A DNA stretch of 64,000 bases from Ginglymostoma cirratum (GCA_024137785.1 JAHRHZ010000274.1:20386086-20450085); one strand, 5' to 3'. Shown: positions 9,222 through 54,080, numbered from the stretch's first letter. A program made the numbers and translations. The notes: generated by a model from the letters alone, not told the origin.

Positions 9222-9686
9222 TATTTGAAACCCAACCCACTTTACAAGAAACTGATACAGTCATCTCTTTTACACCCAGAAGTGAAAGGGGAGCACATAA
9301 AACAAGTAGCCAATATGATCATGCTGGGAAAGTTAGATTATGTAGAGTTATGTCATGTTTCCCCAATATTGAAGTTGGGCACCTAGAAAGGAAAGAAAAT
9401 ACTTATTGTCATACTTAATGACACACCTCTTAATTAATATACTTTATTTACCCAAACAGAATTGCCTAAGATGCATTGGATAGCTTTTCTAATGCTAATG
9501 ACTCTATTGCATTAGCATCATTGTATGAGTACACATTTGAATTTTTGGTTCTCTCAAAATGTGACCTATGTCTACATGTCTACCGGAGATTACTTTTACA
9601 GATATAGCACCATTTTTAATAGGTGAACACTGCTTGTCCCTGTGAGTTTGCCTTGTTCCACAATACTGACCTGATTCTCAGTAACT

Positions 9687-9926
9687 TACAAAAAAGAAAT
9701 TGCTGAAAAGCTCAGCAGGTCTGGCAGCATCTGTGAAGGGAAAAACAGAGTTAATGTTTTGGGTCCGGTGACCCTTCCTCAGAACTGGTTCTGAGTTCTG
9801 AGGAAGGGTCATCGGACCCGAAACATCAACTTTGTTTTTTCCTTCACAGAAGCTGCCAGACCTGCTGAGCTTTTCCAGCAACTTTGTTTTTGTTCCTGAT
9901 TTACTGCATCCGCAGTTCTTTCGGTT
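9687..9926. mobile_element. 240-bp palindromic pseudo-LTR mini-element (family B)
   Basis: Inverted arms, each with a hammerhead-like motif, and a 12-bp TSD, TTCTCAGTAACT (9675-9686 and 9927-9938). Confidence 0.88.
9793..9832 (+). ncRNA. Minimal hammerhead ribozyme motif, family B, mutated in stem III
   Basis: GAGTT CTGAGGA A GGGTC ATCG GACCC GAAA C ATC AACTT: 5-bp stem I, 5-bp stem II and intact core boxes. Confidence 0.6.
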
Positions 9927-12900
9927 TTCTCAGTAACTGTTGCCTGGCTTACTCTGAGGTTTGGAGTACTGTAGGGTTTTTATACTTTATAAACTGAATG
10001 GATACTGTTGTTGTCCTGTGATATCATTATCTTCTGCTCTCAGGATTTCCTGTGAGTCTTTCTGTTTTCTACTTCCAGCACAATCTGAATAGTTTTCTCC
10101 AAAGTCAAATTATCTTTGAATTGTAATAAATCTGTTGAAAGATTATCAGTAATTCCAACAATAATTCTGTTTTATACATTCAAACCTCTATTAGCACAGT
10201 TTCCACTAACCTTTAAAAAGAAGTTAATTATCTAATCTACACAACCCCCAAACCCTTCTGTTAAATCTTGCTTTTTTGTGCATTTTGTTCGCTCTCAGAT
10301 TAAAGTAACTGCCACAAGCTTATAGAGTTAAAAAGCAACTGTGTCTTTTTTATGACTTGATGAGCCAGAACTCAACCAACTGTAGGTCCTATTGAGGGCA
10401 ATAGTCTGTTCTCTTGTTCGGCTTGTGATTAAGTATGTAGCTTGGAAGTAATTCCAAATTCTGCAGTATTTCAATGTTGCTTTATTCTCTTTCCCAAGTA
10501 GAATGTGACTTCTCCAATATAGCAATGTTGTTTAATTTTCCTTGCCTTGAAGGCTTTTAAATGCTGCATTATAAAAGGCTTTTATAATGTGACAATGCTG
10601 CAACTCTGTAATGCATGTATTGATTTTCCTGGCATTTTCGTGTTCAAAACATAAGTTTCTCACTTTCAGTGCCTATTTGTGGGTTCCGTGTCTTCTGCAG
10701 GTAAAATGGAGCATTATCACTATTTATGTGGACAAAATGGATTATTTCCTATCTTTCATGGTAACAGGGATTTTAATCTCACTCACGGAGCTCCCTCTTG
10801 CTTCCCAATGAAACCTGTAAATGCCAAGTGACTAGCTTTCAGCTCACACTTGCTTCTACACTTCTCTTACCAGGTCCAAGGAGAAAAAAAGACTTTACTA
10901 CTAAGTGCTGTTCTTTCGTTGACCTTTCCACGGGTTTGTCTGCAAATTGTTTGACTGTTTAGCTGTTGCAACTGCTGACTGTCTGCATGAATAATTCTTA
11001 AATTTGTAAAGTCTTTACAGCTATAAATGTACAGTAATGCTTTGGGTTCATTGGAATTCTCCTAGTGGTCGTTAAGGAATGTACGTACTGTGATGTTAAA
11101 CATTACTAGCTTGTCACTAGTTTGTTTTCTGCTACCATCCTCTTTCCTTGACTGGGTCTAAATACCTGCCTGGTTTACACTGGAACAGAAAAATCAGTCA
11201 TGTGTCTTAATAGAGGGAGGACATGCCTGAAAAAAGGTGTGGTTTGTTACAGAGTAGAAATCACGTACAAGTTACTTTGCAAGTTAGCCATTGTTCCTAA
11301 GGCCATTGGGAGACTTATGGATAATGGTGTTCATCCTACAATCAAAAGATTTGTTGCATCTTAATACAGTCTTCAGAACCAATTCAGAATCAATATCTTA
11401 TATAACAACAAAGATGTTTTGTATGGGAAATGCAAGTTTTACATTGGTGCATTTCTGATGCTGAAGTTAAGTATTAGGTTTTGTGCAGACTAAAGAAGAA
11501 CTTGGAGTTTGCCATATTTTACATTAAATATTTGAACATAAAAATATTCTACAAATATGAGATCAGGGAGAAATTCTCAGATTTTTTTCATAATTGGTGT
11601 TGGTTTTGTTCTAGTTTCTCAACTTATCTTGAACTAAATGCTTCAGTAGTATGTATCAGGATGACTTAGTACTTGTACCAATGTGACACAGAATAGATAG
11701 ATCCGTAGATTTTTTTTCAGCTATTTGTACGTACTTAAGAGTATTATGTGTAAATAGAGGATAAAATGCAATGTATCATTTGCAAGACAGGCATTAAATT
11801 GTTAGAAGCACACATTGCTATAAATGATTCAGAATATTTTCCCACTATAAAACAGAATCATTATCATTCAGTGGTAGGAAAATTACAATTCTTCCTCTTG
11901 TATTTAACACCACAAATCACTGCGTGGAAATGTCTCCCTTGTCTCAGCTGTTCCCAACTTTGAAAGTCTCCTCAAAAACAACTTCTTTGATCTCACATTC
12001 AGTCACCTCCCTAACCTTGCTTATCCTTTCTGTTCAGTATTCAATCTTCTGCTTTTGTTATGCCACAGATTTGGTTTTAACAATAAAACGAAGGTTCATT
12101 ACAGAAATGAAATTAAGATAATATGGAATAACCATATCATTTACATATCACACAGGTTTAAACATTTTGAAACATACAGTAAAATACAATCATAATAATC
12201 CCAAATGCACTCCTTTATAGTATTCACACTAGAGAGATCTCCCTTCTCTTTCATATCTTTAGGGCTTAATTTGACTATGGCTTTAAATCCCCATTTTGGG
12301 AATTTAGTAGTCTCTCCCTGGAGAATTCTTAAAACTTAGCTTAGATTTTCTCAGCTTCAAATAAATTCTACAGGGTTGTAACCAAACACTTCTGGTCTGG
12401 AACTTTTAACCTAAATTGTTTATACTGAAGTAGCCTATTTCTTACTGATTCTGAACCTATTTTGTCATGTGCAATTTGGCTATTTATCAAGATATCACAC
12501 AGACAAAGAATTATTTAAATTTTATTGCATGTAACAACAAAAATAAGACCCCCCAAGTAAGCAAGTTATACCTCACAACCCAACTTAGCTATTACCTGAT
12601 TAGTGATGGAATTTAGCTACAATTTGAACCAACAGCATCTATCTCTGGGTATGTCCAGTGTTCAACCCTTGTTCAGTATTGTTCTCTGGAATTCTGCTGC
12701 TGAAGAATCCCAAAGCTGAATTCTTATAGGATTTTTAATGCAACATTATTAATGAGACTGTAGTTTTCTTATTAGGAGTGAAAGCCAGCTTCTGTCAACC
12801 TGGCTCTGTGTTCCTTGTTACATTCGGTGTTAGCTGCCTATTCGAAACACAGCCTATCTTGCCATTCACCCCTTAGTTATTTCTGCAGACAATCATTTGT

Positions 12901-13524
12901 CAATGTGGCATAAGGCAACCAGTTGTTAAGCAGTTGGTAAAACAGTTTGTTATGTAGCTTTGATTTTTTTTCCCCCAGGCATGGCCATGAACAGTTATTA
13001 AAGTTCTGAAGTTTACATTGTCACAATTTCCTTTCATCAGGAGCAACAGTTTCGCACATCCAGCTTCTAGCAAGACTTCTGTAAACCTGCTACACTGAAA
13101 CCCAAAAGCTATTTCAAAGCTATGGAAAATCAATGTGTGAGCTTCTAAACTGAAAGTCTGATGCACAGATATTTATTTTCCCACAAAACTCTCCCAATTA
13201 CACAACCCCATTATGCACAGGAACACTCTCCTTCACTGTATTTTTAGAAAACAAATTGTCATGGCTACAGAAATACCTATAAGTTAATCATTAAACCCCT
13301 TCACATACAGAACAAAACACATATGCCAATAGATCCAATTCAAACTCTATAATAAATTGTATTAAAATATATAGAAATCACACAGCTTACTTCGTACTTC
13401 CTTGTGAAGTGCTTTGAAATGATTTGCTACGGTAAAGATAAGTTGCAGTAGGATAAAGATTAACCTTGAAAGGAGAGTATACTAGAGCTGCAAAAATTCC
13501 AAATGGTAAAAATATTTACCTATT

Positions 13525-13775
13525 ACAACACATGTACAAAATAGGAGGAGGGGTAGACAATTCAGCCTATTGAAATTATTGCACCATTTGACATAATGAA
13601 GGCTGATCTGATTGTGACCTCAACTCTAATCTCTGTCTACTCCCTATACCTTTTAACATTTCTACATCTGCTTTGAAAATATTCAATGTTGCTGCCTCCA
13701 TTACTCCCTGTGGAAGAGGTACCTACAGATCCAAGATCCTCTGAGAGAAAAAAAAACCTCCTCACTCCGTCTTAA
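13525..13775 (-). mobile_element. Old CR1-type LINE 3' fragment
   Basis: AATAGGAGGAGGGGTAGACAATTCAGCC...GGCTGATCTG, similar to 36269-36700. Confidence 0.55.
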
Positions 13776-15818: not shown

Positions 15819-16217
15819 CTGAAAGAACCGCAGACGCTGTAAATAAGGAACAAAAACAGAATATGCTGGAAAAGCTCACCAGGTCTGGCAGCATCTGTGA
15901 AGAAAAAATCAGAGTCAACGTTTCTCTGGTTCCTCTGGCTCTTCCCTGGTCTTTGAATGACTACAGCCCCATTTCTTGAAAGGGAGAATAATTTCCCAAC
16001 ACTTGGAGATAATACAACAATTTTTTCCTTATGCTCAAAAACAGAAGTTGCTGGAAAAGCTCACCAGGTCTGGCAGCATCTGTGAAGAAAAAAATCAGAG
16101 TTAACATTTCAGGTCCGGTGACTGAGGAAGAGTCACCGGACCTGAAACGTTGACTCTGAATTTTTCTTCACAGATGCTGCCAGACCTGGTGAGCTTTTCC
16201 AGCAACTTCTGTTTTTG
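15819..16217. mobile_element. Composite family-B pseudo-LTR insertion containing an inverted copy of its own right flank
   Basis: Three pseudo-LTR arms and a 13-bp TSD, AGCATAAGGAAAA (15806-15818 and 16218-16230). Segment 15931-16035 is the reverse complement of 16218-16322. Confidence 0.85.
16122..16156 (+). ncRNA. Hammerhead ribozyme motif, family B, with the 5' strand of stem I lost at the inversion junction
   Basis: CTGAGGA A GAGTC ACCG GACCT GAAA C GTT GACTC. Confidence 0.5.
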
Positions 16218-16334
16218 AGCATAAGGAAAAAATTGTTGTATTATCCCCAAGTGTTGGGAAATTATTCTCCCTTTCAAGAAATGGGGCTGTAGTCATTCAA
16301 AGACCAGGGAAGAGCCAGAGGACCTCTAAATATT

Positions 16335-16485
16335 AGAAAAAAAAAGGACTGCGGATGTTGGAAATCTGAAACAAAAACAAAAATTGCTGGAAGATCTCAG
16401 CAGGTCTGGCAGGATCTATGGACAGACATCAGGTTTAGCATTTTGGGTCCAGTGACCCTTCCTCAGACAATTTCTGTTTTTGTTA
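16335..16485 (-). mobile_element. Degenerate family-B pseudo-LTR fragment
   Basis: Contains GCTGGAAGATCTCAGCAGGTCTGGCAG and GGGTCCAGTGACCCTTCCTCAG, shared with the other copies. Confidence 0.75.
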
Positions 16486-16713
16486 TGTAATCATTAGAAG
16501 TCAGTTTGTTACAATTCAAAAGATTGAAGCAAGTTTGGAAAGGGCACTGGAAGACTCACCTCACTGTGGCAAAGAGAAGGGACTCCACTTTAAAAGTTGG
16601 ATGGGGATTTAGACTTTATCTAAATGGTCACAAATAAAGTATAGTATAATGTATAACATCATCAGATTGGGATTTTGCTTGTGTTAATCAGTTAATGAAG
16701 AAAGCACCAAAGT

Positions 16714-16929
16714 TGTATTCATATTTTAAGAGTTAGATATACTAATAAGACAAGACCAGGATGAAACCATATGCCCAACTGCCATGTGCAGTCCAGCAGA
16801 AGCATGATAGAGTCTGGATAAATACATAGCTGTCTGTAAGTGCAAGCTGTACTCAGAACTGTTAGGTAATAGAGAGGCGAGGCCAAAGACTCATATGGTG
16901 TGGACATGTGTTCAAAGCCTATCACAACA
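16714..16929 (+). repeat. LTR-like repeat (TG...CA), second copy at ~21365-21510
   Basis: Shared blocks TTTTAAGAGTT.GAT.T.CTAA and TGCCATGTGCA.TCC.GCAGAAGCA.G.TAGAGTC. Confidence 0.55.
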
Positions 16930-20135: not shown

Positions 20136-20214
20136 AAGAGAGGATTTTGTGTTACTTACAAACAAAGAGCTAAGACATGATGATCAGCCCTGGGAACATT
20201 TCTTCAATATCATG

Positions 20215-22880: not shown

Positions 22881-23280
22881 ACAAATTTAAAAAAATGTAG
22901 GAATGTAAAGCAATGGACAGATATTTGAGGCAGACTCACATGATCCAACAAAAAGTTATACAGATGGTGTAAGAGGAATTCTTCTCAGGAGGATGTTTAC
23001 AATCTAGCCAAAGATTTGTTAAGCATGACAGTCAAAGAACTTTGAAATCAACCAGAAACAATCATGTGGGTCCCCCTTCTTGTGGCTGACAAAATGTTGT
23101 GATAATCAGAGGTATAACTAAGTTAGATTCAATTGGGCATATATATACAGATGAAGCAAAATTTTCAACCTTCTCATTGTTAATTGTTTCCCGGTTTAAT
23201 TTCTTATTTATTTCTAAATATATTACCTCAACATAATAAAACACAGGAACATGAATTGACAACTTCAATTTTTATTCTCA

Positions 23281-25128
23281 AACAAAAACAGAAATGGCTG
23301 TAAAAGCTCAGCAGGTCCAGCAGCATCTGTGGAGAGAAATCAGAGTTAATGCTTTGGGTCCAGTGACCCTTCTTCAGAACTGATTGTAGGTAGGAAAAAG
23401 TATTTTTATGCAGAAGATAGGGTGGGGGGAGGGGGTGGAGAGTAAATGATAGGTGGAGATGGAGCCCACAGAGAGAGAAGAGCAGGTGGACAGACAAAGA
23501 AGTTGGTAATGGTCAGATTAGGGCAATAAGTTGCTGCTAATTGGGACTGTTAGTGGCTAACAATGGGTTGTGTGTAATAGCAGACCATGTGATAACAAGG
23601 AACAAAACAAAGTTACTGGAAAAGCTCAGCAGGTCTGGCAGCATCTGTGAGGGAAAAAACTGGGGAAGTTCTGAGGAAAAGTCACTGGACCTGAAACATT
23701 AACTCTGTTTTTTCTTCACAGATGCTGCCAGGCCTGCTGAGCTTTTCCAGCAACTTTGTTTTGTTCCTGATTTACAGCATCCGCAGTTCTTTCGGTTTTT
23801 ATGTGATAACAAGGCCTGGTGTGTGGGGGTTAGGGCAAGGACATGGGAGAAGGTGCCTCAAGTCCTAAAATTGTTGAACTCAATACTAAGCCCAGAAGGC
23901 TGCGGAGTTCCCAAGGGAGAATGAGGTGCTGTTCTTCCAGCTTGTGCTGAACTTTGCTGGAGAACTGCAGCAAGCCTGAGACAGAGATGTCGGCCAGGGA
24001 ACAAGGTGGTGTGTTGAAGTGGCAGGCTATTGAAGGCTCAAAGTCTTTTTTGCAGACAAAACATAAGTGTTCTGCAAAGCAGTCACCCAGTCAATGTTTC
24101 GTTTCCTCAACATAGAGGAGACTACACTGTGAGCAGTGACTATAGTAGACTAGACTGAGTGGTGCAGGTAAAGCGGTGCTTCAGCAGGTGTGCTTGAGCC
24201 CTTGGACACTGCTTTCTGCCACCTCCAGTAGGAATCCACCAACAGAATCATATCCCCCTTCCCTCCCATCCCTGTAAGTCTTTCACAAGGACTGTTCCCT
24301 CAAGGATGCCCTAGTTCATTCCTCCTTCACTTCCAACAAACCCCCACAGCCCCACAGTACTTTCCCCTGCAACCACAGACGCTATAACACCTGCCTGTTT
24401 ACTTCCTCCCTCCTCAGTATCTGAGGGCCCAAACGCAATTTCCAGGTAAAGTAACATTCGTTGCTCATCATGTGGTCTCCTCGACATTGGGGAAACGTAA
24501 CATAGACTGGGTGACTGCTTCAGAGAACACCTATACTCTGTCCACAAAAAAAGACCCTGAGACTCCAGTTGCCTGCCACTTCAACACAGTACCTTGTTCC
24601 CTGGCCAACATCTCTGTCTCAGGCTTGCTGCAGTTCTGCAGCGAAGATCAGCATAAGCTGGAAGAACAGCACCTCATTTTCTGCTTGGGAATTCTGCAGC
24701 TTTCTGGACTTCATAACGAGTTTAACAATTTTAGGGCTTGAGGCACCTTTTCCCTATCATTACCCCCAACCCCATAGCCAGGCCTTGATATCACGTGGTC
24801 TGCTATTACACACTACCCATTGTCAGCCATTAACAGTTCCCATTTGTAGCAATACATTCTCCTAGTCTGACCATTACTCACTCCTTTGTCTGTCCAACTA
24901 TTCTTTTCTCTCTGTGAGCTCTATTTCTACCGATTGTTTACTCCCTACCCTATCTTCTGCATAAAAACCAACTCTTTCCTGGCTACCATCAGTTCTGAAG
25001 AAGGGTCACTGGACCCGAAGGATTTAGCCCTGATTTCTCCCCACAGATGCTGCCAGATCTGCTGAGCTTTTCCAGCAACTTTTGTTTTCATTTCTGATTC
25101 CCAGCATCTGCAGTTCTTCTGGATTTTT
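23281..25128. mobile_element. Older Penelope-like element, family B, made of two inverted 3' halves (degenerate GIY-YIG plus pseudo-LTR)
   Basis: The right half (+, ~24211-25128) encodes PVACHFN...GLLQ...KLEEQHLIFCLGILQLSGLHNEF. The left half (23281-~24210) is its diverged reverse complement. A possible degenerate TSD is TTCAATTTTTATTCTCA / TTCAGTTTTTGCTCA. Confidence 0.85.
23601..23800. mobile_element. 200-bp palindromic pseudo-LTR mini-element (family B) nested in the larger Penelope-like element
   Basis: Inverted arms and an exact 14-bp TSD, ATGTGATAACAAGG (23587-23600 and 23801-23814). Confidence 0.88.
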
Positions 25129-26822: not shown

Positions 26823-27249
26823 AACGCGAGCTCAATAACTGATTGAACTGGCAATATGAGAAAGGTGAATGTGAATTGAGGAGAGTCTAAGAAGTTTTTC
26901 CATGCTTCAATTCTGGGACTCCAGGAGCTACTGAAGAAGCATTTCCTTGTTGTCACTGTCAACAACAAAAACATTTCACATTTTTATAGCACTTTTCACA
27001 TGTGGATAAATATCTCCAAGTGCTTTATAGGATAATGGAAGTCTGGTCGGTGCAGGGCAGGAGCAATAAAAATATTTAGAGTGTACACCAATAGTATTTC
27101 CAACTGAGGCCAAGTTACCATGCTCAAATATGTTTTGACGTTTTTAATATTTAAAACTTTAATGATCCATAAATCAGGATATTCAAATTAGATCTGCATC
27201 ACATTATTACATTTGACTCTGCCTCAGCAGCCCCAGATGCACCTGCAGA

Positions 27250-27630
27250 TATCAGATTGGTCTTTCTGAAAGTCAACCCAAGGAAAGCGATGAGCCTGGA
27301 TGGAGTCCCTGGCAAGCATTTAGATCCTGTGCGTACCAACTGGCGGAGGTATTCACTGACATCTTCAACCTCTCCCTCCTACAAGCTGAAGTCCCCCCGC
27401 TTCAAGAAGACCATCACCATCCCGGTACCTAAGAAAGCACATTCAACATGCCTTAATGACTACTGCCCTGCAGCTCTGATCTTCATAATCATGAAGTGCT
27501 TTGAGAGGCTGTGCATGGCCCACATCAACTCCAGCCTCCCAGCCTGCCTCGATCCACTGCAATTTGCCTACTGATGTAACAGGTCCAAAGCGGACACCAT
27601 TTCCTTAGCGATGCACTCATCCCTGGAACA
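27250..27630 (+). mobile_element. Rex1/Babar-type non-LTR retrotransposon RT fragment
   Basis: VNPRKA...DGVPG, FKKT.TIPVPKK...CLNDY.P.AL..IIMKCFERL.MAHI.SSLP..LDPLQFAY, with a frameshift and a stop. Confidence 0.8.
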
Positions 27631-28634
27631 ACTGCAGTAGGTATGGAATTGATGTCTCACTGTGCTGTAGAGTAAGATATCCATCCCTTACTGATTGCTA
27701 CTGAGAAGCATGACAACATCCCGGCTCGATGTGGGTGTTTTTGTCTGATGCTGAGCTTAGAAATCAGCAAGTGGGTCCAGTCGTCCAGTTGTGCAGTGTC
27801 CATAGTACGATGCTGACAACTCAGAGTTTGTGACTTCAAACTAAATAGGGTCACCATTTCCTTTCATGGAAAAGAACATCACACCATACCTTGTTTAGAC
27901 CTAAAGCATATCTTTGGCTCTCAGTGCCCTCTGGTATTGCTTAGCAATACTCTGTTGTACAAACAATAGCTCTGATGCATAATTAGAGGAATTGGAGATG
28001 GTTAATAAAGGCAGCATTAGCAATGTTGCCACATACCAAAACCAAATTCAAAAAATGTTTTACGTATTGAAACACTGCAATCCAATGGGAATGTCCATGT
28101 ATGTCCTTGCAAGTTTCGGAGATGACCGTAGAGACGGTGGCAGAGGATTTGCTCTGTCAGATATGCAAATATGTAAGCACGCCATGGAATTCCTGGTGTC
28201 TTCTTTCATACAAGATATCTGAGTGCATTTTTAAAATGGCATGGCATAATAAACTGTGATTCTCTTAGCAGTTTTTCTTTCTGTACCTTTTAAAGAGCAA
28301 AAATGATCTGTGCCACTGACATTGAATCGAGAAAAAGGGAAAAAGCTGGGGTGAATGGTGCAATTATTGAGAAGTCATTATACACGCACTGATATGCAAG
28401 ACTGACTGCAACAAATGTCCATGCTCTTTGACATCAAAGAAAAACAAAGAATACATCTATGTAGTTCAAATCACATTTTAAAGGCATAGATTAAATATAT
28501 TGGTAAGCCTTACATTCCCATTGATAGGCAAAAAACATAGATTAAACTATTTTGACCAGTGCATGATTTTTTTTCACAAGGCGTATAGAATAAGTATCAT
28601 TTACAAAGGATCAACAAATCCAGCAAACCCTGGA

Positions 28635-30069
28635 TGTCCAGGAAACTACAGGCCTGTCAGTAAAATCTCAGTGGTGGAGAAACTATTGGAAGCAATTCTG
28701 AGGGACAGAAATAATCTGCTCTTGGAGAGGGAGAGATTAATCAAGAACAGTCAGCATGGTATTGTTAAGGGGAGGTCATGTCTGACTAAATTGACTGAAT
28801 TTTTCGAAGAAGTGATCAGGTGTGCAGATGACAGAAATGCATTTGATGTAATCTACTTGGACTTCAACAAGGCTTTTGCAGAGGTTCCACATGGAAGACT
28901 GATAGTAAGAGTCCATGGGATCCAAGGAAAGTTTGCAAAATGGCTGGATGGCAAATAAAGAAGCTTTATGTGTCTGGAAGCCCATGTCCAGAGAAGTTCT
29001 GCAGGGATGAACGTTGGGGCCTTTGCTGTTTGTGGTGTATATAAATGATTTAAACTTGAAAGTAGGAGGGTTGATCAGTAACTTTGTGGATTACACAAAA
29101 ATTGTTGGGGTGGCAAATAGTGAGAAAGACAGCCTTAGATTACAAGAGGGTACAGTCAATCTGGACAGATGGGCTGATCAGTGACAAATGGAATTAAATT
29201 CTGTTAAGTTAGGGTTAGGGCTAGGGTTAGATTTAGGGTAGGGTTAGGGTTAGGGTTAGTGTTAGGGTTAGGGTTGGGTTAGGGCTAGAGTAGGGCTAGG
29301 ATTAGGATAGTTTAGAAGTGATGAATTTGGGCAGGACAAACAAGGCAAGGGAATACATGATGAACGGTAGGACCATGGGAAGCACTGAGGATCAGATGGA
29401 CCTTGGTGTGCATGTGCATTGTGCCCAAAGGTAGCTGGATTGGTAGATAACATGGTTAAGAAGATATATGGGACTTTTGCCTTTGTTAGCTAAGGCATAG
29501 AGTTTAAGAACAGGGAGGTTATGCTGGTACTGCGTAAAGCATTGATTAGGCTGCAGCTGGAGTATTGTGCGCAGTTCTGGAATCTGCGTCAAAGCAGGGA
29601 TGTCATATCACTTGAACGGGTACATTGAAGATTTACCAGGGTGTTGCCAGGTGAGAGAGTTTTAGTTACAAATAGAAATTGGACAAACTGGGTTATTTTC
29701 CTTGGAGCAGAGGAGCCTGAAGGGGGATGTGATTCAGATGTACAAACTTATGGAGGGTATAGATTGGGTAAACAGGAACAGACTTTGGAGGGATTAATGA
29801 TCAGAAGCATAGATTTAAGTTATGGGGCAGGAGGTTTAGAGGGTGGTGGGAATCTGGAACGCATTCCTTGTATGGGTAGTAGAGGCAGAAACTCTCATAA
29901 CATTTAAGAAGTATTTAGATGTGCACTTGTGATGCCAAGACATAGAATGGTGTGGGACCAAGTGCTGGGAAATGGCATTAGATTAGTTAGGTGCTTGCTT
30001 TTAATTGGGACAGACTCAATGGGCTGAAGGGCCTTTTTCTGGGCTGTAGATCTCTATGACTCTGTGACT
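28635..30069 (+). mobile_element. 5'-truncated, decayed CR1 LINE (RT domain to 3' tail)
   Basis: PGNYRPVS..SVV.KLLE.ILRD, SQHG.VKGRSCLT.L.EFFEE and DVIYLDF.KAF..VPHGRL motifs, with frameshifts and stops. Ends in a CTCTATGACTCTGTGACT tail. Confidence 0.92.
29209..29314 (+). repeat. Interstitial telomeric repeat (TTAGGG)n, degenerate
   Basis: About 18 units, 8 of them perfect TTAGGG, with variants such as CTAGGG, TAGGG, TTAGTG and TTAGGA. Confidence 0.9.
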
Positions 30070-30730: not shown

Positions 30731-31626
30731 TTGGACAGAGCAATCATCATATTAAAAAGAAACCAGCCTGGGAAATTCTTATCCAGTGCATTAAAGATAT
30801 ATACACAGTGTAATGTACTTATTGTGAGTTCCCTCAATTCTTTTTCACACAATAACAATGCCATAAAAGCATATGCAATAAAGATAACAAGGAAATTCAG
30901 TGCCTTGGACAGCGCAGACGGAGAGTTTGAACAGAAAAAATAAATTGCCAATCCCTTCATTATCAAGACTCTGTCTAAAGCAGAAGGCTTGAAGCTGCAG
31001 GTAACTGGATCACTCCTGTTCAGATCAATCTAAATTGAACAGAAGAAAAAGTGAGTTGAGTCCATTTGTTTGATGACATCCTTTCACATCTGGGATTAGG
31101 GGTTGATTCCAATTCATAGACACCATAGAACTTTTCTCTCTCTGAGACATGTTAAAGACCAGAAGTGAAATTTATTTGGACAGCTTTAAGACATGGCCTG
31201 GTGGGATTGGAATTCACAGTATTAAGTGTTCTTAAGATTAATGTTAATCAGCAGTGTAAAAAACAAAATTGATGGGAAGTTATAGTACCATAGTACAGCA
31301 TTAAGCCTGTTAGAAACCATTAAATCTACAGCACATTAGAGAAGTCATAATATCTTCATGCAAATGATATACACTTTTAAATTATTCTGATAAAGTTAAT
31401 AACAAAATTAATTTAATAAAATACAGCTCAAACTATGAAAATATAGTGTGGAAATAAGTGTTAAACACCTGTGATTTAATTCCCTCTACGATTATACATA
31501 GGCTCAGTTTGCTAAACACATAATTGCTCTAGAGATGAAAGGTACTGCAGATGCTGGAGAATCCGAGATAACAAGCATGGGGCTGGATGAACACAGCAGG
31601 TCAAGCAGCATCATAGGAGCAGGAAA

Positions 31627-31660
31627 CTTGACGTTTCGGGCCTAAACCCTTCATCAGAAA
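31627..31660 (-). ncRNA. Minimal hammerhead ribozyme motif, family A
   Basis: Exact reverse complement of 33007-33040. Confidence 0.75.
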
Positions 31661-31875
31661 TGGGGGAGGGGAAGAGGGTTCTGAAATAAATAGGGAGAGA
31701 GGGGGAGGCGGATAGAGGATGGATAGAGGAGAGGATAGGTGGAGAGGAGGCAGACAAGTCGAAGAGGCGGGGATGGAGCCAGTAAAGGTGAGTGTAGGTA
31801 GGGGGGTAGGGAGGAGATAGGTCAGTCCAGGGAGGACGGACAGGTCAAGGGGGCGGGATGATGTTAGTAGATAGG

Positions 31876-32275
31876 NNNNNNNNNNNNNNNNNNNNNNNNN
31901 NNNNNNNNNNNNNNNNNNNNNNNNNNNNNNNNNNNNNNNNNNNNNNNNNNNNNNNNNNNNNNNNNNNNNNNNNNNNNNNNNNNNNNNNNNNNNNNNNNNN
32001 NNNNNNNNNNNNNNNNNNNNNNNNNNNNNNNNNNNNNNNNNNNNNNNNNNNNNNNNNNNNNNNNNNNNNNNNNNNNNNNNNNNNNNNNNNNNNNNNNNNN
32101 NNNNNNNNNNNNNNNNNNNNNNNNNNNNNNNNNNNNNNNNNNNNNNNNNNNNNNNNNNNNNNNNNNNNNNNNNNNNNNNNNNNNNNNNNNNNNNNNNNNN
32201 NNNNNNNNNNNNNNNNNNNNNNNNNNNNNNNNNNNNNNNNNNNNNNNNNNNNNNNNNNNNNNNNNNNNNNNNNNN
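31876..32275. other. Assembly gap (400 N)
   Basis: Run of N between the inverted arms of the Penelope-like element. Confidence 1.
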
Positions 32276-32754
32276 CCACACCCGGCACTTTTCCTTGTAA
32301 CCGCAGGAAGTGCTACACCTGCCCCCACACCTCCTCCCTCACCCCAATCCCAGGCCCCAAGAAGACTTTCCACATCAGGCAGAGGTTCACCTGCACATCT
32401 GCCAATGTGGTATACTGCATCTGCTGTACCCGTTGTGGCTTCCTCTACATCGGGGAAACCAAGCGGAGGCTTGGGGACCGCTTTGCAGAACACCTGCGCT
32501 CAGTTCGCAACAAACAACTGCACCTCCCAGTCGCGAACCATTTCAACTCCCCTTCCCACTCCTCAGATGACATGTCCATCCTTGGCCTCCTGCAATGCCA
32601 CAGTGATGCCACCCGAAGGCTGCAGGAACAGCAAATCATATTCAGCCTGGGAACCCTGCAGCCCAACGGCATCAATGTGGATTTCACAAGCTTCAAAATC
32701 TCCCCTCCCCCAACCGCATCCCAAAACCAGCCCAGCTCATCTCCACCTCCCTAA
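32276..32754 (+). CDS. C-terminal GIY-YIG endonuclease domain of a Penelope-like element ORF (5' part hidden by the gap or truncated)
   Basis: Uninterrupted frame with CNRRKCYTC (Neptune-type Cys motif), NVVYCICC...LYIGET.RRL..RF.EH, PVANHFN and EQ.IIF.LGTLQPNGIN. Confidence 0.88.
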
Positions 32755-33006
32755 CCGGTTTTTCCTCTCACCCCAAGCCACACCCCCATCTCCTATCTAC
32801 TAACATCATCCCGCCCCCTTGACCTGTCCGTCCTCCCTGGACTGACCTATCTCCTCCCTACCCCCCTATCTACACTCACCTTTACTGGCTCCATCCCCGC
32901 CTCTTCGACTTGTCTGCCTCCTCTCCACCTATCCTCTCCTCTATCCATCCTCTATCCGCCTCCCCCTCTCTCCCTATTTATTTCAGAACCCTCTTCCCCT
33001 CCCCCA

Positions 33007-33040
33007 TTTCTGATGAAGGGTTTAGGCCCGAAACGTCAAG
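33007..33040 (+). ncRNA. Minimal hammerhead ribozyme motif, family A
   Basis: TTT CTGATGA A GGGT TTAG GCCC GAAA C GTC AAG: conserved core boxes, stem II, loop-less palindromic stem III (ACGT), GUC cleavage triplet and a 3-bp stem I. Confidence 0.75.
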
Positions 33041-33939
33041 TTTCCTGCTCCTATGATGCTGCTTGACCTGCTGTGTTCATCCAGCCCCATGCTTGTTATC
33101 TCACATAATTGCTCTAGGTCATTGAGTTTATAAAATCACACTGATGTGCTTACTTACCAAGATTGACACTTCCCCTTGCAATAATCTATAACTTTCATGT
33201 GCAAATTTCGCAGAGAGTAATTTGCATTATTTTTCTATCAAACTAATATTTCTGTCCTCTGATGTAATGCAGCTGAATCTTATGCTATTTTGTCTAAGAG
33301 TCAACTTCACTGAGCTTCATGGATGGTTTTTCCCCTTGAGGCCTATCAATACATCTCACCATGTCATCCCAAATTCACCTCATTAAACACCTGCCATGCT
33401 CCTTTGGCTACCCTCTCATTCAATGGAAGCCCATTCCCCCAGTCACCATAGCCAAAAGAACTCACCATTGCTAGGATATCCCGGAAGAGATTGGTGTCCC
33501 TGGCTCCAGGACATCTTTGAACCTTAGTTGAACATCCAGCAAGCACTGGAAATGCAGGGTAGCCCTTCACAAGCAAGGTCCCAGACACATGCTGCCTGCA
33601 GCACATAGCTGCCATGGCTGACATTTCCTGGCATGTTCAGCTCCACTTTCTTGACCCTGACACTGTTTAACCACCAGGTCACACAGATCATCTATCCATA
33701 ACCACTTCTTACCCTCTCTATGTCCCTGCTATTCTGTCTCCAATGCCCCCTGTAGACCATATTTTATCATTATCTGGGGGGCCACAACACACAGGTATGC
33801 ATTTGGACAATTCCAAAGCTGAGCTTTTATTTTCAGTTAAAAATAAATTGAAACAAAACTAATAGAAGCATCTACAATGCAAATGAAATGCTGTCATGAT
33901 GACCAATAACTATTCTACATTCTCCTGCACCATCTTTCC

Positions 33940-42450: not shown

Positions 42451-45400
42451 AATGACATAAGAACAGGGAGGCACGTCAGGCAGTAACTAGAAAGTGAAAC
42501 AAAGTTCTACATTTCAGGTCAGTGGCCTTTCATTAAATCAGTGCTATCTGCAATTTCACTTCATGCCAAGTATAGGATAAGGGTGAGGAGCGAGTAGAGA
42601 AAAAGAACCAGGCAGTCACTTACCATCATGTAATTTCTAACTCACTAACTGAGGAGAATTGGTATCTTTAAGAAGATTCACGATCCCAAGGAGATTGAGA
42701 TGATCCACTGCAATGCCAACTACATCAAATTTGATATATCATCATTATAGATTCTGTCTTTTTGAATTTTAACAATGAATGGGAGGGCATTATGATATTA
42801 TTGATTGCAACATTTGGTAGGTTGGTTCATGGATAATCATTGCAAGATATTTTACTATCGTGATGTTATGCCTTTAAGATGAGGTCTCCCAAAAATAGGT
42901 TCCCTGTGCTGTTCTGTTAGTCATCTGGAAACTACAATATAAAATGTCGAGATCACATTTCAAGCCTGATGCTTGTGTAAAGCAGGAAAGTGATGTCATT
43001 TTTTTTCGCAACAAGATATTTTAATTAACTGGGGTCCAAAGCTTTCATCCTGCTGACTTCAGCAAAATACAATCATTACCCAAGTTCCACATGAACGTTA
43101 GTAAAATTGGCTCAGAGCTACATTTAATTATTACTTTCACTGCAGGCCTTTTAATTTATATTGATTCTGGTTTGAAAGGCCTAGCATAACTGAGTCTTAT
43201 ATGTCTTAAGCCATGTCTGCTTCTAGTATGAATATAATCACTGTCTTCAATTCAATTGATAACAAATGAAATATTGCATCCTCTTATTGTCCTACAAATA
43301 ACATTTTTTCTCAAGCAGATACATAATTATGCTTATAATTTTGTAATTCTTGTGATTGACAATATTGCTGCAATATTTCTGATCTGAAACCTACAATATA
43401 AAAGATAATGTTAGAGAGAAAAATTAAACCTAGTATTGATTTCTTCTTCTTTCCAGCTTTCCAGCGTACAACAATCTCTGTAATGTGTTGGAGGAGCACA
43501 AAATCTACAACTGCCCTACCTAGGCACAGTGTTTAATGTTTTAGAAGCTGTTCATGCCTTCCTAATTGAGATTAATGTTAATAGCAAGCATGTCAAGCAA
43601 TTTGCCCAAAGTGGGTGACTGCCAATGAGAAGAATGGGCAATCTACCTGGTGTGAACTGTATATGCTGCTGTTTCACACGTGACACCAATGTCTAGTTAT
43701 TAACCTTAATCCTCACTTGCTCAGGCTGTAAAATACCTAGCACCGGAAACAGAAAGATTATCAGGATTAAGAATGTGAAGCTGGGTGATGGAAAATATTT
43801 TTGTTTTTTTATCCAGTAGAGGAAATTTAATGAAGGTGTACTGTTTGATCAGTCACTGTGGGTCAAGCAGAGATTGAGGTCAGGTTATGTAAATTAACAA
43901 TAAAACGTCCGGAGCTGAAATGTAAAAATAAACACTTGTAAAATTTATCAGAGGCTGCGCAAATATTGATAGTCTCCTCTCATATTCAAAGTAAATTTAA
44001 GAACAGTTTAATTGGGAGAAACTAACACAATCTGCATCAATACCTGGGATTGACTAAAGCATTCAGAATTGGCAGGAAATTCTTCAAAGGTTTGGTAAAG
44101 ATGAGGAGGTCTATCACCAACTACCATCATTAGGCCCACCTTAACCCCAGCCATTAGCTCTTCCAGACAAAGAACCCTCCAGTATACCCATTATGGTACC
44201 AATCCCATAAATCCAGGGTCCACTTCTACCTAGCTCAGATGTCCATTCCAAATACTCAATCCTGCTTGTGTCCTGCTTCTTGACAGTGATGCAAAGTTTG
44301 CATTTCACTAGAGTGGACCTGCAAACACACTGCATATGCATCAAGCAGGCAGCCATCTCTCAAACTCTTAGGGGTGAGCCTTTACAAAAGTCCGTGGAGG
44401 TGCCTGTCAGACAGAGGGTCCTGGCATAGTGAGTCAAGGCAGCCTCCTATATAACTCTAAGGATTGGCCACAGTTAGGTGTCCAGTCAGGGTGATCTCAG
44501 TCGGGGGTCCATGTCTCTGCAGTCTGGAGAGTGTGTCACAGTCCATCCCATAACTCCATAGAGTCCAGTCCAGGGGACAGGGCTAACATGGTCAGGGAGT
44601 TGTACGGCCACCTCTGAGGACACTTCGCTTGGGGCTGTCTGGTTAGGTTACTCAAAGGGGTGGGGGCCTGTGGAAAAACAAGGTGTGTTGTTGCCATAGG
44701 AAACAGACTTGGGGACCCATCCTTTGGGATGGGGTCTTCAAGTCGGGAGCAAGTGAGGATGATAATTGTGAGAAGGGGCAACAGTATCTGCAAGGGGGCA
44801 GACATGGTAGAATGGATGGAAGGAATCATACAGGAGGATGGTTTGTCCATAGTCAGTAACACCCTGGCTTTGAGGAGGGGACAGTGTATAATCACACCTG
44901 GTAATGGTCACCTCATGCCACAGGCTAGAGGGAAAACCTATGGGGTTCACCGAAAGGACTACTAGAAAGATGTTCTAATTATTTGGGGCTCCACCAATAC
45001 GTAGAGGTGGAGGCTGGAGGTACTGTCTGAAGAGCATTCACCATCATCTTCCATCACGCTCAGAATCCAAAGTGTGCAATAGGAAACATAATGGTGGAAA
45101 CCAACCTCGGAGAGAGCAGGGTTAGTGACTCTATTCTTTCTGACTGCATTTGGTTGGATAAACACGCTTTATGTTTGCCATCTAGGCAGCTGGTGTATGC
45201 TGTACGTTTTCAGTTGATGTTTGGTGTGTTGTACTGCAGGACATCACCCTCCTGCTCCTCCCGCTTACTGTCCTCACTGTCATGCAGCCTGTCTGTGGGT
45301 TTGCACAAAACAGTACGTCAATACAACATTACTGTGAGCCTTTAGACTCAGGCAGAAATTCCACTGCACTACCAGGCATGACACAGCATGGTAAAGCAAA

Positions 45401-50477: not shown

Positions 50478-51111
50478 GAATCGTAGTCAGACAGCACGGA
50501 AACAGACCTTTCGGTTGAACCAGTCCATGCTGAACATAATCCCAGACTAACTAGTCCCACCTGCCTGTTCCTGGCCCATATCCCTCCAAAACTTTTCTAT
50601 TCATGTACTTATCCAAATGTCTTTTCAATGTTGTAATTGTAACCACATCCACTACTTTCTTAGGAAGTTCATTCCACACTTGAACCACCCTCTGCATAAG
50701 AAATTTGCCTCTCGTGTCTTTGTTAAATCTCTTTCCTCTCACCTTGAAAATGCATCCCCTAGTCTTGAGATTCCCCATACTAGGGAAAAGACAGCTACCA
50801 TTAACCCTATCTATACCTCTTAGTATTTTATATACTTCTATAAGGTCACCTCTCAACCTCCTATGTTCCATTGAAAAAAATCCCAGCCTAGCTAGCTTTT
50901 CTTTATAACCCGACCTTCCCTACCCCATCCTGGCAAATCTCTTCTGAACCCTGTCCAGCTTAATAATGTCCTTCCTATAACTGGGAGACCAGGACTGGAC
51001 ACAGTATTGCAGTAGAGGCCTCACCAATATCCTGTACCTCAATAACCTCAACATGATTTCCCAATTCCTATACTCAAAGGACTGAGCAATGAAGGCAGGC
51101 ATGCCAAACAC
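50478..51111 (-). mobile_element. CR1 LINE 3' fragment
   Basis: LVRPLLQYCVQ.WSP.YRKDI.KLDRVQKRF and RRLRGDLIEVYKILRGIDRV...TRG..FKV motifs. Confidence 0.92.
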
Positions 51112-51558
51112 ATCTTCTGTTGTCTGTACTTCCTCAGATTAGTGTAAGTGATGAGCACCGGCCACATGGGAGTGGAAATAGCATAAAGGAGCAGTACATG
51201 TTGACTACTCTCAGGATGCCAGCACACTTACCTTTCTGCCACAGTCTCGCCCAATGTTACTCTGGTGCCAGCAAATCAGTTGGACCAAACATACAGTGCA
51301 CGAGTTTCAGCAGTCTCCAGTCAGTCCCTCACAAACACAAACCTCCAGGAGAGAACAGCTATAGCCATTTCGGCATCCCAACATAGGGAGGAGCTGCATT
51401 CCATCTGCCTTGTTCAGTCCTCATAGGAATAGTGTAATGAGCCTTCTTTAAAGAAAAGTACTATTGATTGATTGTTAGGGTGAGAAATGATTGTCAGGCA
51501 ATTTGGTGTGGAGCTGGATGAACACAGCAGGCCAAGCAGCATCATAGGAGCAGGAAAG

Positions 51559-51592
51559 CTTGACGTTTCGGGCCTAGACCCTTCATCAGAAA
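51559..51592 (-). ncRNA. Minimal hammerhead ribozyme motif, family A
   Basis: Exact reverse complement of 51734-51767. Confidence 0.75.
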
Positions 51593-51733
51593 TGGGGGAG
51601 GGGAAGAGGGTTCTGAAATAAATCGGGAGAGAGGGGGAGGCGGATAGAGCTCCACCTATCCTCTCCTCTATCCATCTTCTATCCACCTCCCCCTCTCTCC
51701 CTATTTATTTCAGAACCCTCTTCCCCTCCCCCA

Positions 51734-51767
51734 TTTCTGATGAAGGGTCTAGGCCCGAAACGTCAAG
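51734..51767 (+). ncRNA. Minimal hammerhead ribozyme motif, family A
   Basis: TTT CTGATGA A GGGT CTAG GCCC GAAA C GTC AAG. Confidence 0.75.
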
Positions 51768-54080
51768 CTTTCCTGATCCTATGATGCTGCTTGGCCTGCT
51801 GTGTTCATCCAGCTCTACACCTTGTTATCTCAGATTCTCCAGCATCTGCAGTACCTATTATCTCTGTCAGGCAATTGGTTTGGCATTAATCAGCTTTATT
51901 ACATTTTGACTTTGATCCACAGTTTAATAGCAACTTCTGGATCTGCTTTGTAAGAATATCATTGATCCAGATGCTGTTTAAATTGCTTCGAGGTTCTTCA
52001 CTGCAGAAAGAAAGGGGTCAAACTGGGCTGTTGAAGTTGTCAGATTGGGTGCAATTAAGTTAACGGAGTTGCTGATCCCTCATATTTGATGCTGCAAGCT
52101 GTTTATTCTTTGCTGCTGCTCATGGTCCTGATGTCAGCCTCTGTTATTTAAATCAGGTCCAGAAGTTAAATAGCCTGTGCCTCACAGAGTTTCCTTTGGG
52201 GTGGCTTTCCTCAGCCTGTAAATTGATGCCTATTCTGAATGTACACCTCAGTTGAAATCCATGTTGATATATTCTTATCAAAGCCACTTATTTTATTCAT
52301 CTTAAGTGTTGTTCTGTCTGCTTCTGCTCAATGGCTGTCTGCTCCATTTGGGAACTGGTTATGTAAGCTCTGGCAAGAAGCATTCACAAGCAAAACCATC
52401 CTACCCTTGTTCCCTGGAACGTGGAAGACATACAGATTATTCACATCCTAGTACTAGAAAGCTTTAAAAACTTAACATCTTAGGCCTGAGACACGTAATG
52501 GGTTTCACACCATAATGCCTCTGTATTTCACTTGTACATTCGTGATATCTGCTACTTTGAGGTTTTTTTCCTAAGCTCTAAATATTCCTTTCCTCAACCT
52601 TTGTATCCTTGCAGTTTTAAAAATCAAAGTTCTATACATTGTTTCCCAGTCCAGTTAATCTTACTGAAGATTCATGACCATGGGACTCTAACTCCCTCAG
52701 CTGTCTTTTGTAAAGTCATAATTTTAAGATCCAATTTTGGTGTCATTTGCTCACAATGCCTCACTTCTCCTTCTTGTCACTTTTCAAACTGAGTGGTCCA
52801 ATATTTTGTCAGGAGGTTATGAAAATAAGTTAAAGGTTTCACTGGCAGACTGTTTACTTACACAGTTGTTCAGCCAAGAAAAAAATTCTCTACAAAAAGA
52901 GTTCTGAGAAGTGCAGAGTAGTCACAAGACTTCTCATGTTATAGAAGAAAAATAGTGATGAAAAGCTTCAAAGAAAACACCAGAGTCAGAACTGTAGCAT
53001 AGCTTGTTTATTTTTTTTAAACTTTTTTTGCATAGGGAAACATATTCACTTCCAGTAATTGTATGTAGTATGAGCAGCTGCTAACAGTAATGGCTGAATA
53101 CAATGGTTATAATCAAATGTCAAGCTGAGTTCACACCAGTTTAAAACGAGTGGTGATTTAGTTACGTATATACTGTACATCTGTGTACAAAAGCAGCAGG
53201 AAAGATGCTGGTCTTTGTACAAGTGTCCCTTTACATAATTAGCTAAAAATCAAAAGACAAATACAATCAAAATAAATGATTATTTTTAGTTGTTGGAGTA
53301 GAACTGTGATCATGAAAGATTTTATTTTGTCAGAAGTTTGCATCAAGCAACTAAAGAGCCACAAGTTTGTCCTGGTGTGTAGTGTGTGTATGTCTGTGCA
53401 GCAAGCAAGCGGTTAACTACTGTGGTAACTACCGTAATATTCTAAAATATAATGAAAAACCCTCAGAAATAACACGGTCTCAATGCGTTCTCAGAGAAAT
53501 ATTCTCTTCCCAGAATATGTGCAATGTAATACATATGGAATTACAACAGTGATGTTCAAAGGACATTTGTCATAGAGCCTGTGCAACAAAGACATAAAAA
53601 AAAGACAAACTGTGAAAACCAGGTCTTGCAAAGCAAAATTGAATCCAGCAGTTGACTATCAGGCACTGCATTTATTAAAAATGTTTTTGGTACTTTTCTG
53701 CTGGCTTGTTAAAATTGCTAGAAATAACTGCAGAGAATAATGCAACTGCTTATCAGATCATTGCCCTCTATATAACTATGATCAACATCAAAGCTCAAAT
53801 TTGCAGAAAAAAAGGAAGCTGAATTTATTCCTCCTTTTTTGCCGCTACTGTCATGCTAATCAACAGATTACTCCCTATGGGCTATTTGCAGAAAATGTGC
53901 TGCATCGATGGATCTTTTGCCTGTTTTCCTGTTATTTCATACAGTAAAGTTCAGTGCAGATGGATCAAAGCACGCGAAGCATAACCTTGCTTACATGGAG
54001 CTGCCTCATTTGGGTTCTGTAGATGGATTAAGGCTTTGAAACATATTTCCTTTGGTTACTGACTTGCAGTAAAATATAAT

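Follow-up and report, generated by a model that had tools for sequence, protein, structure and literature searches.

The window, which was the whole 64,000-nucleotide stretch of Ginglymostoma cirratum DNA that was analysed, contained four short palindromic elements beginning at 9687 (A1), 23601 (A4), 51504 (B3) and 62467 (A6), which an earlier note had described as ribozyme-bearing mini-retroelements. The palindromes were real. Comparison of each element with its own reverse complement gave inverted arms at 9688-9893 (87% match), 23598-23768 (82%), 51505-51821 (91%) and 62505-62686 (80%), and strong RNA folds were predicted for A1, A4 and B3 (-174, -109 and -303 kcal/mol; z of -24, -12 and -29, respectively). 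A1, A4 and A6 belonged to one family (family A) and B3 to a second (family B). All four elements (4/4) had head-to-head arms and a one-sided tail, and the unpaired outer tails were 33, 32, 43 and 38 nt long according to the self-match coordinates. The description of one arm as 30-45 nt longer than the other was correct at the outer end (32-43 nt) but not at the inner ends, which were far more unequal (60 vs 134 nt in A4). Since both copies in the hairpins were only 60-215 nt, no ORF was left. Exact TSDs were present as claimed at 9675/9927 (12 bp, A1), 23587/23801 (14 bp, A4) and 51492/51865 (12 bp, B3), but the same search found none of at least 7 bp for A6 at 62467-62686. A match of at least 12 bp occurred in 4 of 2,963 random position pairs used as control. 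The TSDs were not all of unrelated sequence, as the TSD of A4 (23587..23600) was part of an older family-A copy, A5 (23276-25125), whose other arm showed the A4 target site once and served as an internal empty site.

Positions within the arms are numbered from a predicted transcription start (+1) that is discussed below. A1 was flanked by the left TSD copy TTCTCAGTAACT (9675..9686, plus strand) and the right copy at 9927-9938. Its left arm (9687..9786, minus strand) was a family-A end without a tail, with the inner end at +1 (or -1), followed by 7 nt of filler (9787..9793) that partly repeated the first bases of the right arm. The right arm (9794..9926, plus strand) started from +1 and carried a minimal hammerhead (9794-9831), the core end at 9893 and the tail at 9894-9926. 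For A4, the 14-bp left TSD copy on the plus strand (23587..23600; right copy 23801-23814) was followed by a left arm without tail or hammerhead (23601..23660, minus strand), 6 nt of filler (23661-23666) and a right arm from +1 (23667..23800, plus strand) with a hammerhead of weakened stem II and a tail at 23769-23800. B3 had its 12-bp TSD at 51492..51503 (plus strand) and 51865-51876, a left arm (51505..51649, minus strand) with the inner end at -56 and the outer end approximately 10 nt short of the usual core end, and a right arm (51650..51864, plus strand) with the inner end at -83, a hammerhead at 51733-51770 and a tail running to 51864; a 6-bp palindrome lay at the junction. A6 (62467..62686) was a decayed family-A hairpin with the tail on the left (62467-62504), a right arm from approximately +1 and arms joined via a shared CAGT.

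Six other copies of the two families were found in the window. B1 (9124..9221, plus strand) was a single family-B arm from +1/+2 to the core end with a 13-bp TSD (9111-9123 and 9222-9234), which was confirmed by the empty orthologous site in related organism A. A2 (15819..16217) was a complex insertion with a 13-bp TSD, in which a tailed inverted arm was followed by an inverted segment copied from the right arm and approximately 100 bp of the element's right flank, and then by the right arm itself; the fold-back was at hammerhead stem II, with approximately 190 nt copied in reverse, 100 of them flank, round a 7-nt loop. A3 (16335..16485, minus strand) was an older family-A insertion consisting of a tailed arm ending at approximately +2 and approximately 17 nt of opposite arm, and the TSD search gave nothing above chance for it. 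A7 (63233..63345, minus strand) was a decayed tailed family-A arm also ending at approximately +2. The remaining two were long head-to-head copies: the old family-A copy A5 (23276..25125), with GIY-YIG remnants in both arms, the tail on the right and a 10-bp TSD, and the young family-B copy B2 (31534..33101), with arms 99.7% identical, the tail on the left, a 16-bp TSD and a 400-N gap inside. Overall, TSDs of 10-16 bp were present at 7 of the 10 loci examined.

On these sequence features, the hairpins are the 3′ ends of two Neptune-type Penelope-like (PLE) families. The longer copies A5 and B2 carried GIY-YIG sequence of both families in the same head-to-head, one-tail and TSD arrangement as the hairpins. 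A C-terminal PLE ORF fragment with a CX4CX2C linker and a GIY-YIG domain was identified at 32278..32754 (plus strand), with a match to PF01541 at 32278-32751 (E 5.4e-06), and a shark protein 94% identical to this family-B fragment carried RVT_1 and GIY-YIG. The linker before GIY-YIG read CNRRKCYTC and CTRC in family B and CNHRRYNTC, decayed, in family A; the CX2-5CxxC linker and CCHH motif that mark the Neptune/Nematis clades were both present. The RT domain of neither family lay within the window, and the Neptune-type placement is by the linker motif. EN+ PLE insertions have been described with an inverted pLTR and a 30-40 bp tail (Arkhipova et al. 2013, PMC3846280; Craig et al. 2021, PMC8557442). 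The same anatomy was found here: GIY-YIG fused to RT (via the 94%-identical protein), an inverted 5′-truncated copy with a one-sided tail of 30-40 bp in the four hairpins as well as in A5 and B2, TSDs of variable length (10-16 bp), and a minimal hammerhead motif in the pLTR, predicted from sequence. The proposed origin from Penelope by retrotransposition was therefore supported by the TSDs, the GIY-YIG-bearing copies of the same shape and the B1 empty site. Unlike those EN+ PLEs, both copies in the hairpins were cut to 60-215 nt and family-A arms ended at a fixed base, a hotspot not described in the sections of these papers drawn on here. No protein beginning with the reading frame of the arm was found among 28 candidates, so that a start site at the 5′ end of the ORF is borrowed from other PLEs. 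No host exon was recognised, and none of 97 frames of at least 75 aa had a Pfam match (97 of the 110 frames listed were scanned, the remainder being frames scanned separately or other frames over B2), and pattern scans gave no matches in viral or metagenome contigs.

The ribozyme claim held for a minimal hammerhead motif, with both core boxes (CUGANGA and GAAA) intact in just 4 of 8 arms. An Rfam search returned 20 matches at E≤1, which were sub-threshold miRNA-hairpin matches with no hammerhead among them. In the hammerhead model 86.5% of cells paired compared to 55% or less in slid controls, and covariation was not above shuffles (28-285 of 500). The motif resembled the metazoan PLE minimal hammerheads of Cervera and de la Pena (2014, PMC4209133) in its CUGANGA box, bulged base, stem II, GAAA, palindromic minimal helix III and 4-bp stem I. 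That study also reported pairs of minimal hammerheads in Schistosoma, located on opposite strands at a distance of 100-700 bp, and found most motifs to be solitary ones derived from truncated PLEs; its main text does not include shark families, and the shark motifs are known here from sequence. In a consensus fold of the start-site region, the ATG region was predicted to form a helix with the tail, which covariation did not support (term +1.07).

Junctions were compared among the window copies and the contigs of related species matched to approximately 200 bp of the arms. The earlier note had offered truncation products and a self-propagating class as alternatives, with identical junctions at many loci as the mark of the latter. 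No two window copies shared a junction. Among the 15 joints listed of 430, with some joints uncounted, the best-supported inversion junction was found in 8 of 92,126 contigs in X1 and 15 of 142,872 contigs in X13. Contigs merge identical copies. The best joints had approximately 19-20 depth per contig compared to a flank depth of approximately 8 (X1) and 19-22 (X13), and depth across the A1 centre was 4,066 compared to 2.6 million on the adjoining arm (X1). Recurrent opposite-strand joints among those listed were many and thin, with numerous different coordinate pairs and a depth close to that of a single copy. In addition, the arms of young elements were each other's nearest neighbours and shared private variants. 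Arms within an element differed at 2 of 50 columns in A4 and 3 of 50 in A2, compared to 8-10 between A4 and A2, while B2 arms were identical at 143/143 positions and matched B3 at 135-136. The arms of A1 differed at 7 of 50 columns and so need not share one template, which is suggestive of a two-template origin. Truncation-type formation, independent at each insertion, was supported by the differing junctions and private variants; plain random truncation was incomplete as an account, as family-A arms end at a hotspot.

The hairpins are very probably dead-end insertion products of the two PLE families, made anew at each site. By analogy with PLE biochemistry, the GIY-YIG endonuclease would nick both strands 12-16 nt apart, and RT would be primed by each 3′ OH, beginning on the element RNA at either of two internal positions, the core end or the tail end approximately 32-38 nt further 3′. 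The outcome would be the pattern observed, arms that face outward with just one of them tailed. The cDNAs met at variable inner ends and were joined bluntly, by microhomology or with a few filler bases, and in one case (A2) a cDNA folded back on itself. For PAc (Poseidon of Anolis), nicking and extension of both strands were reported in vitro, with two internal RT start sites whose spacing equals the tail, approximately 110-120 nt into the ORF and beside the hammerhead, uncleaved RNA as the template and a predicted dimer (Frangieh et al. 2024, PMC11167929). Two 3′ end classes recurred in relatives, core ends running into unrelated DNA and conserved tails, which matches the two RT start sites and the both-strand nicking of that study. 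For family B, core ends at 9219-9221 were joined to unrelated DNA in 1,095, 1,286 and 1,433 contigs (X13) with agreement <0.4. PAc belongs to a different clade, and the main text of that paper describes neither inverted mini-insertions nor run-off at the RNA 5′ end.

What is new here is that family-A arms stop at a fixed base, inverted copy, tail and minimal hammerhead being published PLE anatomy. Seven of 11 short family-A arms ended within -1 to +5 (post hoc binomial p ~1e-5 after 17 bins), or 6 of 10 without the fold-back arm (p ~1e-4), and the hotspot base lay four bases before the hammerhead CUGA box. Of the joints listed, 9 were opposite-strand, and each of these had one side within 9784-9787. 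In X1, 581 and 422 contigs had loose ends behind 9785 and 9786, respectively, with agreement of 0.33-0.34, and in X16 the true upstream sequence departed at 9787. An initiator YYANWYY at the hotspot A matched at 7/7 positions in 6 of 6 long arms against a background of 1.2% of positions; this match was looked for once the hotspot had been noticed, its sequence also forms the 5′ strand of hammerhead stem I, and its six matches are not independent because families A and B are homologous. The predicted family-A core promoter in A5 (24960..24995, plus strand) consisted of a TATA-like box, CATAAAAA, at -31 (7/8 match) and the initiator match with A(+1) at 24991, just 5′ of the CUGA box; both motifs together occurred at 0.03%, and TATAAAAG was read from the loose-end consensus of X16. 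In family B (32975..33010, plus strand, predicted) the TATA-like TATTTATT at -31 was weak, with a 6/8 match at background level (17%), and the initiator match had A(+1) at 33006. The contig evidence on the hotspot concerned family A, while family B was seen through B1, which started at the equivalent A, and B3, which did not. In its sequence context the hotspot base resembles a transcription start of the element, as inferred from contigs, which cannot reveal an RNA 5′ end. The rotifer paper (PMC3846280) noted motifs similar to TATA and Inr in a pLTR, and in D. virilis Penelope is transcribed from an internal promoter without TATA whose start lies 46 nt upstream of an intron, a layout unlike that of family A.

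We lean slightly towards the view that many family-A arms are complete rather than randomly truncated, produced by RT run-off at the first base of the RNA. RT would start at the start-site copy near the transcript 5′ end and run off at the initiator A, giving arms of approximately 99 nt without the tail or 133 nt with it, and two such cDNAs primed from opposite nicks and joined would form a hairpin. Run-off arms have no TATA-like box, and the hammerhead and RT start signal are buried in the hairpin, so they should not re-transpose. B3, with ends at -56/-83, is an ordinary truncation.

It is possible, though doubtful, that the arms formed independently but that the hotspot comes from RNA structure or processing, with RT stalled or released after the hammerhead, or with a CAG|TT splice acceptor and an exon 1 of a few bases. 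Predicted stem I has its 5′ edge at the hotspot, the opposite sides of the listed joints fell at +33 to +49 around the stem I 3′ strand and U-run, a pyrimidine-preceded CAG is present at the hotspot in A5, and PMC4209133 places the end of the D. virilis intron at the start of helix I on its 5′ side. However, a structural block should halt RT 3′ of the fold and not after it has been copied through. A retained exon 1 predicts a conserved loose end, whereas the observed agreement was 0.33-0.41. With an AG| acceptor, ends would be expected at +3 and not at +1 and +2, where the listed loose ends lay. Family B has no AG there, yet B1 begins at this position. The hotspot was also considered as a splice acceptor or as a result of cap copying, and neither could be demonstrated.

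Formation of the hairpins mainly by cDNA fold-back (self-priming) from one nick is unlikely. It was seen directly in A2, self-priming has been proposed for PLE inversions in PMC3846280, and the palindrome at the B3 junction would suit it. However, when a core-primed cDNA folds back it copies flanking sequence, as happened in A2, and no tail can result; ends without a tail occurred on single TSD-bearing arms (B1 and thousands of contigs in relatives); and in A4, A6 and B3 the inner ends were unequal and one arm contained sense-only sequence, for which the RNA must be read a second time.

The self-propagating class, a retrozyme-like or SINE-like non-autonomous element using the PLE protein in trans, is very improbable. 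The copy number of both families is very high, near-A1-type and A4-type junctions recurred in several contigs, one joint reached a depth of 690, and non-autonomous PLE derivatives of head-to-tail form were reported in Chlamydomonas (PMC8557442). However, no junction dominated in relatives among those listed. Hammerheads on opposite strands leave one per transcript, paired inside the hairpin, the hammerhead cores of 4 of 8 arms were broken or absent, and recopying from the core or tail start would lose or alter the outer end in each round. Metazoan non-LTR retrozymes (Cervera and de la Pena 2020, PMC7229834) are likewise non-coding, with 170-400 nt, a type I hammerhead and, when present, long TSDs, but they consist of direct tandem repeats whose hammerheads lie on the same strand and which release monomers that circularise, whereas the shark hairpins are single inverted pairs continuous with a PLE ORF. 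MITEs or assembly artefacts can be practically dismissed: despite short non-coding sequence, inverted ends and TSDs, MITEs are refuted by asymmetric arms continuous with GIY-YIG/RT sequence and PLE ORFs, in place of symmetric TIRs matching a DD[E/D] transposase family, and by the variable TSD length, and despite the N gap between the near-identical B2 arms, artefacts are opposed by diverged arms elsewhere and by similar inversion joints in independent assemblies of related species.

The joint 9750 to 9718 (+37/+69) was an exception, with a depth of 690 in X1 and 64 in X23, and the region 9738-9786 averaged 54 per contig in X13; some junctions may accordingly be multi-copy. Head-to-tail joints of +1-to-core arms were found in 3 and 5 contigs of relatives among the joints listed. 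There is only a slim chance that a minority of promoter-start-to-tail units now replicate on their own, beyond the run-off model, and the +37/+69 joint and the head-to-tail tandems are long-shot candidates. If so, head-to-tail tandems would carry two hammerheads in the same orientation, from which a circle could be released, and retrozyme-like or hairpin non-autonomous elements would be born from abortive PLE cDNAs in shark genomes.

The relevant sections of PMC8557442 and PMC11167929 still treat as unresolved how PLEs generate tails and inverted copies, and the shark families are abundant enough for mechanisms to be tested directly by junction statistics. Should transcription indeed start at the hotspot, the genome would record in vivo both RT start sites and the first base of the RNA. 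Internal initiation would then often be wasted on the 5′ copy of its own signal, which would explain why most PLE hammerheads are short solo motifs, and the ribozyme would be positioned at +5 of the message, so near the cap that cleavage would take it off. Family contigs were present in two sequencing runs presumed to be RNA, in which unique flanks had little or no coverage; these runs have no bearing on expression. Finally, the suggestion of the earlier note that the hairpins are dsRNA, ADAR or Dicer substrates is plausible from the predicted folding and Drosophila precedent, and hairpins in transcribed DNA could be a large source of dsRNA.

Ten insertions of two homologous families of Penelope-like elements (PLEs) were found in the window, seven of family A (A1 at 9687, A2 at 15819, A3 at 16335, A5 at 23276, A4 at 23601, A6 at 62467 and A7 at 63233) and three of family B (B1 at 9124, a single arm, B2 at 31534 and B3 at 51504). 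Self-comparison of the window bore out the head-to-head inverted arms that the earlier note had described for A1 (9688-9893), A4 (23598-23768), B3 (51505-51821) and A6 (62505-62686), with arm identities of 80-91%. One arm had been said to be longer by about 30-45 nt, and the outer unpaired tails measured 33, 32, 43 and 38 nt, respectively. Exact target site duplications (TSDs) of 12, 14 and 12 bp were present at A1, A4 and B3 (control: at least 12 bp in 4 of 2,963 random position pairs) and no TSD of at least 7 bp was found at A6 in the same search. These duplications had been described as unrelated sequence but that of A4 is a piece of an older same-family copy, the other arm of which has the site once. 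TSDs of 10-16 bp at 7 of the 10 loci agreed with the proposed origin by retrotransposition.

The Penelope-like origin was upheld by a long copy of the same head-to-head shape with endonuclease sequence in each family. B2 showed a GIY-YIG frame (E 5.4e-06) with 94% identity to an annotated Rhincodon protein, which also carries RVT_1, and 87% to a Stegostoma protein, while A5 had GIY-YIG remnants in both arms. A 400-N assembly gap (31876-32275) between the near-identical arms of B2 hides its inner junction. The CX4CX2C linker in the endonuclease sequence of the window families is indicative of the Neptune/Nematis type in the sense of PMC8557442. An inverted copy with a tail, as in the window hairpins, is the standard PLE anatomy (PMC3846280, PMC8557442, PMC8969392).

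The elements had also been called ribozyme-bearing. Both hammerhead core boxes were intact in 4 of 8 arms of the four named hairpins and the named stems were paired in 86.5% of cells, but no hammerhead was among the 20 matches of an Rfam search and stem covariation was no higher than in shuffles. The inverted arms resemble the opposite-strand minimal hammerhead pairs 100-700 bp apart of PMC4209133. Retrozymes are direct tandems yielding circles (PMC7229834) and the window elements are inverted pairs, which does not fit a retrozyme identity. RNA folding predicted long hairpins (z -24 for A1, -12 for A4 and -29 for B3), and the idea that they would give dsRNA has precedent because siRNAs arise from inverted Penelope copies in transgenic Drosophila (PMC3681739).

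The hairpins are very probably real elements of an ordinary class, members of a known PLE kind, formed independently at each site. The inner junctions in the window all differed, with a 7-nt filler in A1, a 6-nt filler in A4, a shared CAGT in A6, a blunt joint at -56/-83 in B3 and a fold-back in A2. Private variants were common to both arms of young elements; A4 and A2 had 2 and 3 differences per 50 columns within the element compared to 8-10 between them, and the arms of B2 had 143/143 identities compared to 135-136 with B3. The arms of A1 differed in 7 of 50 columns. The differing junctions and the private variants speak against the earlier suggestion that the hairpins propagate themselves as a class, which is unlikely. 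Contigs from 4 of 24 sequencing runs (X1, X13, X16 and X23) were aligned to 8950-9815, which spans B1 and the A1 left arm, with 92,126 matching contigs in X1 and 142,872 in X13. The two organisms concerned are relatives, since only 16/465 and 28/464 flank letters differed from the window. Among the 15 joints listed of 430, nine were opposite-strand, and the best supported had 8 contigs (X1) and 15 contigs (X13) with a depth of about 19-20 per contig (flank about 8 in X1 and 19-22 in X13), counts in which contigs merge identical copies and some joints fall outside. The bin of the adjoining arm reached a depth of 2.6 million, the A1 centre one of 4,066. In favour of self-propagation, one joint averaged a depth of 54 per contig, and the joint of 9750 to 9718, with one letter between, reached 690 in X1 and 64 in X23 and is possibly a multi-copy junction. 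One X1 contig passed from 8950-9110 directly to 9222-9686, an empty site which confirmed the TSD of B1.

Many short family-A arms had a fixed 5' end. Counting from +1, the A four bases before the hammerhead CUGA box, 7 of 11 short family-A arms ended within -1 to +5 (ends judged by eye, excluding both long arms of A5 and the copy made by fold-back; post hoc p about 1e-5, or about 1e-4 for 6/10), and all 6 short family-A insertions had one arm ending there. In the relatives, all nine opposite-strand joints listed had one side at 9784-9787 (+3 to -1). Loose ends behind 9785 and 9786 comprised 581 and 422 X1 contigs (agreement 0.33-0.34), among the 24 listed of 1,121 loose ends, and in X16 the true upstream sequence departed at 9787. 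B1 starts at the same A, and B3 ends away from the hotspot. Arm lengths from +1 were 99 nt without the tail and 133-134 nt with it. TATA scoring used TATAWAWR, a variant of TATAWAAR; BBCABW is a further motif consensus. A5 had CATAAAAA at -31, at about -29 the loose-end consensus of X16 showed TATAAAAG, and family B matched at background level only. The printed TATA consensus is TATAWAAR (PMC4581360). The +1 A matched YYANWYY (taken, with its positions, from Table 1 of PMC4581360) 7/7 in 6/6 long arms of both families, with 1.2% of window positions matching; this match is also stem I of the hammerhead, and the families are homologous, so the matches are not independent.

The simplest reading of these sequence features, somewhat more probable than not, is that transcription starts at +1 and the hotspot arms are complete run-off cDNAs. 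The reverse transcriptase (RT), having begun at the start signal's 5' copy, would copy to the first RNA base and run off. Against this reading, the protein search found no protein starting in the arm reading frame, and the predicted start differs from the promoter layout of D. virilis Penelope (PMC2377424). In the literature searched, mostly open-access main texts, no paper was found that describes these shark families or an initiator-located 5' hotspot. What merits further study here is the run-off explanation for the hotspot. The A1 junction filler (within 9787-9801) duplicates bases from the start of the arm, in agreement with the CA that opens the loose-end consensus past 9786 in both X1 and X23. 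At this one locus the filler might, as a guess, have arisen by RT re-alignment at the template end, a telomerase-like slippage.

At the 3' side, family-B contigs in X13 stopped at 9219-9221 before unrelated DNA (1,095, 1,286 and 1,433 contigs) or ran on at 9225 into the conserved tail (816 contigs), among the loose ends listed. In vitro work on a PLE protein showed nicking and extension of both strands, with uncleaved RNA as the template and RT starts at two internal positions, 111-118 nt within the ORF, the spacing of which equals the tail (PMC11167929); the two start sites there resemble the two 3' end classes here. Two primings from opposite nicks, each using one start site, would produce exactly the head-to-head, one-tailed anatomy. 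Self-priming has been proposed for PLE inversions (PMC3846280), and A2 (15819-16322) is a direct trace of it. A 7-nt loop at hammerhead stem II separates about 190 nt, 100 bp of them flank, from their reverse repeat; one cDNA folded back, copied itself and about 100 bp of flank, and then joined the other arm. Self-priming thus does occur, but cannot alone explain the usual hairpin shape because flank was copied and no tail was made.

In both relatives, some contigs linked the 3' end of family B with an inverted 3' end of family A (9203-9221 to 9705-9712; up to 10 contigs per joint among those listed), which suggests that one PLE family inserts at the end of the other. The A4 TSD at 23587 resembles the family-B 3' end without the tail. 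Other features of the window were a LINE-like frame without a Pfam match (27173-27571), a retroelement fragment with an RVT_1 match (28482-28955, E 2.9e-08), an interstitial telomere-like array of 17 copies of GTTAGG with 80% matches (29208-29306), a pair of retroelement fragments with 78% identity (50495-50641 and 54099-54241) and a faint decayed family-A arm (42471-42533, E 2.3e-4).
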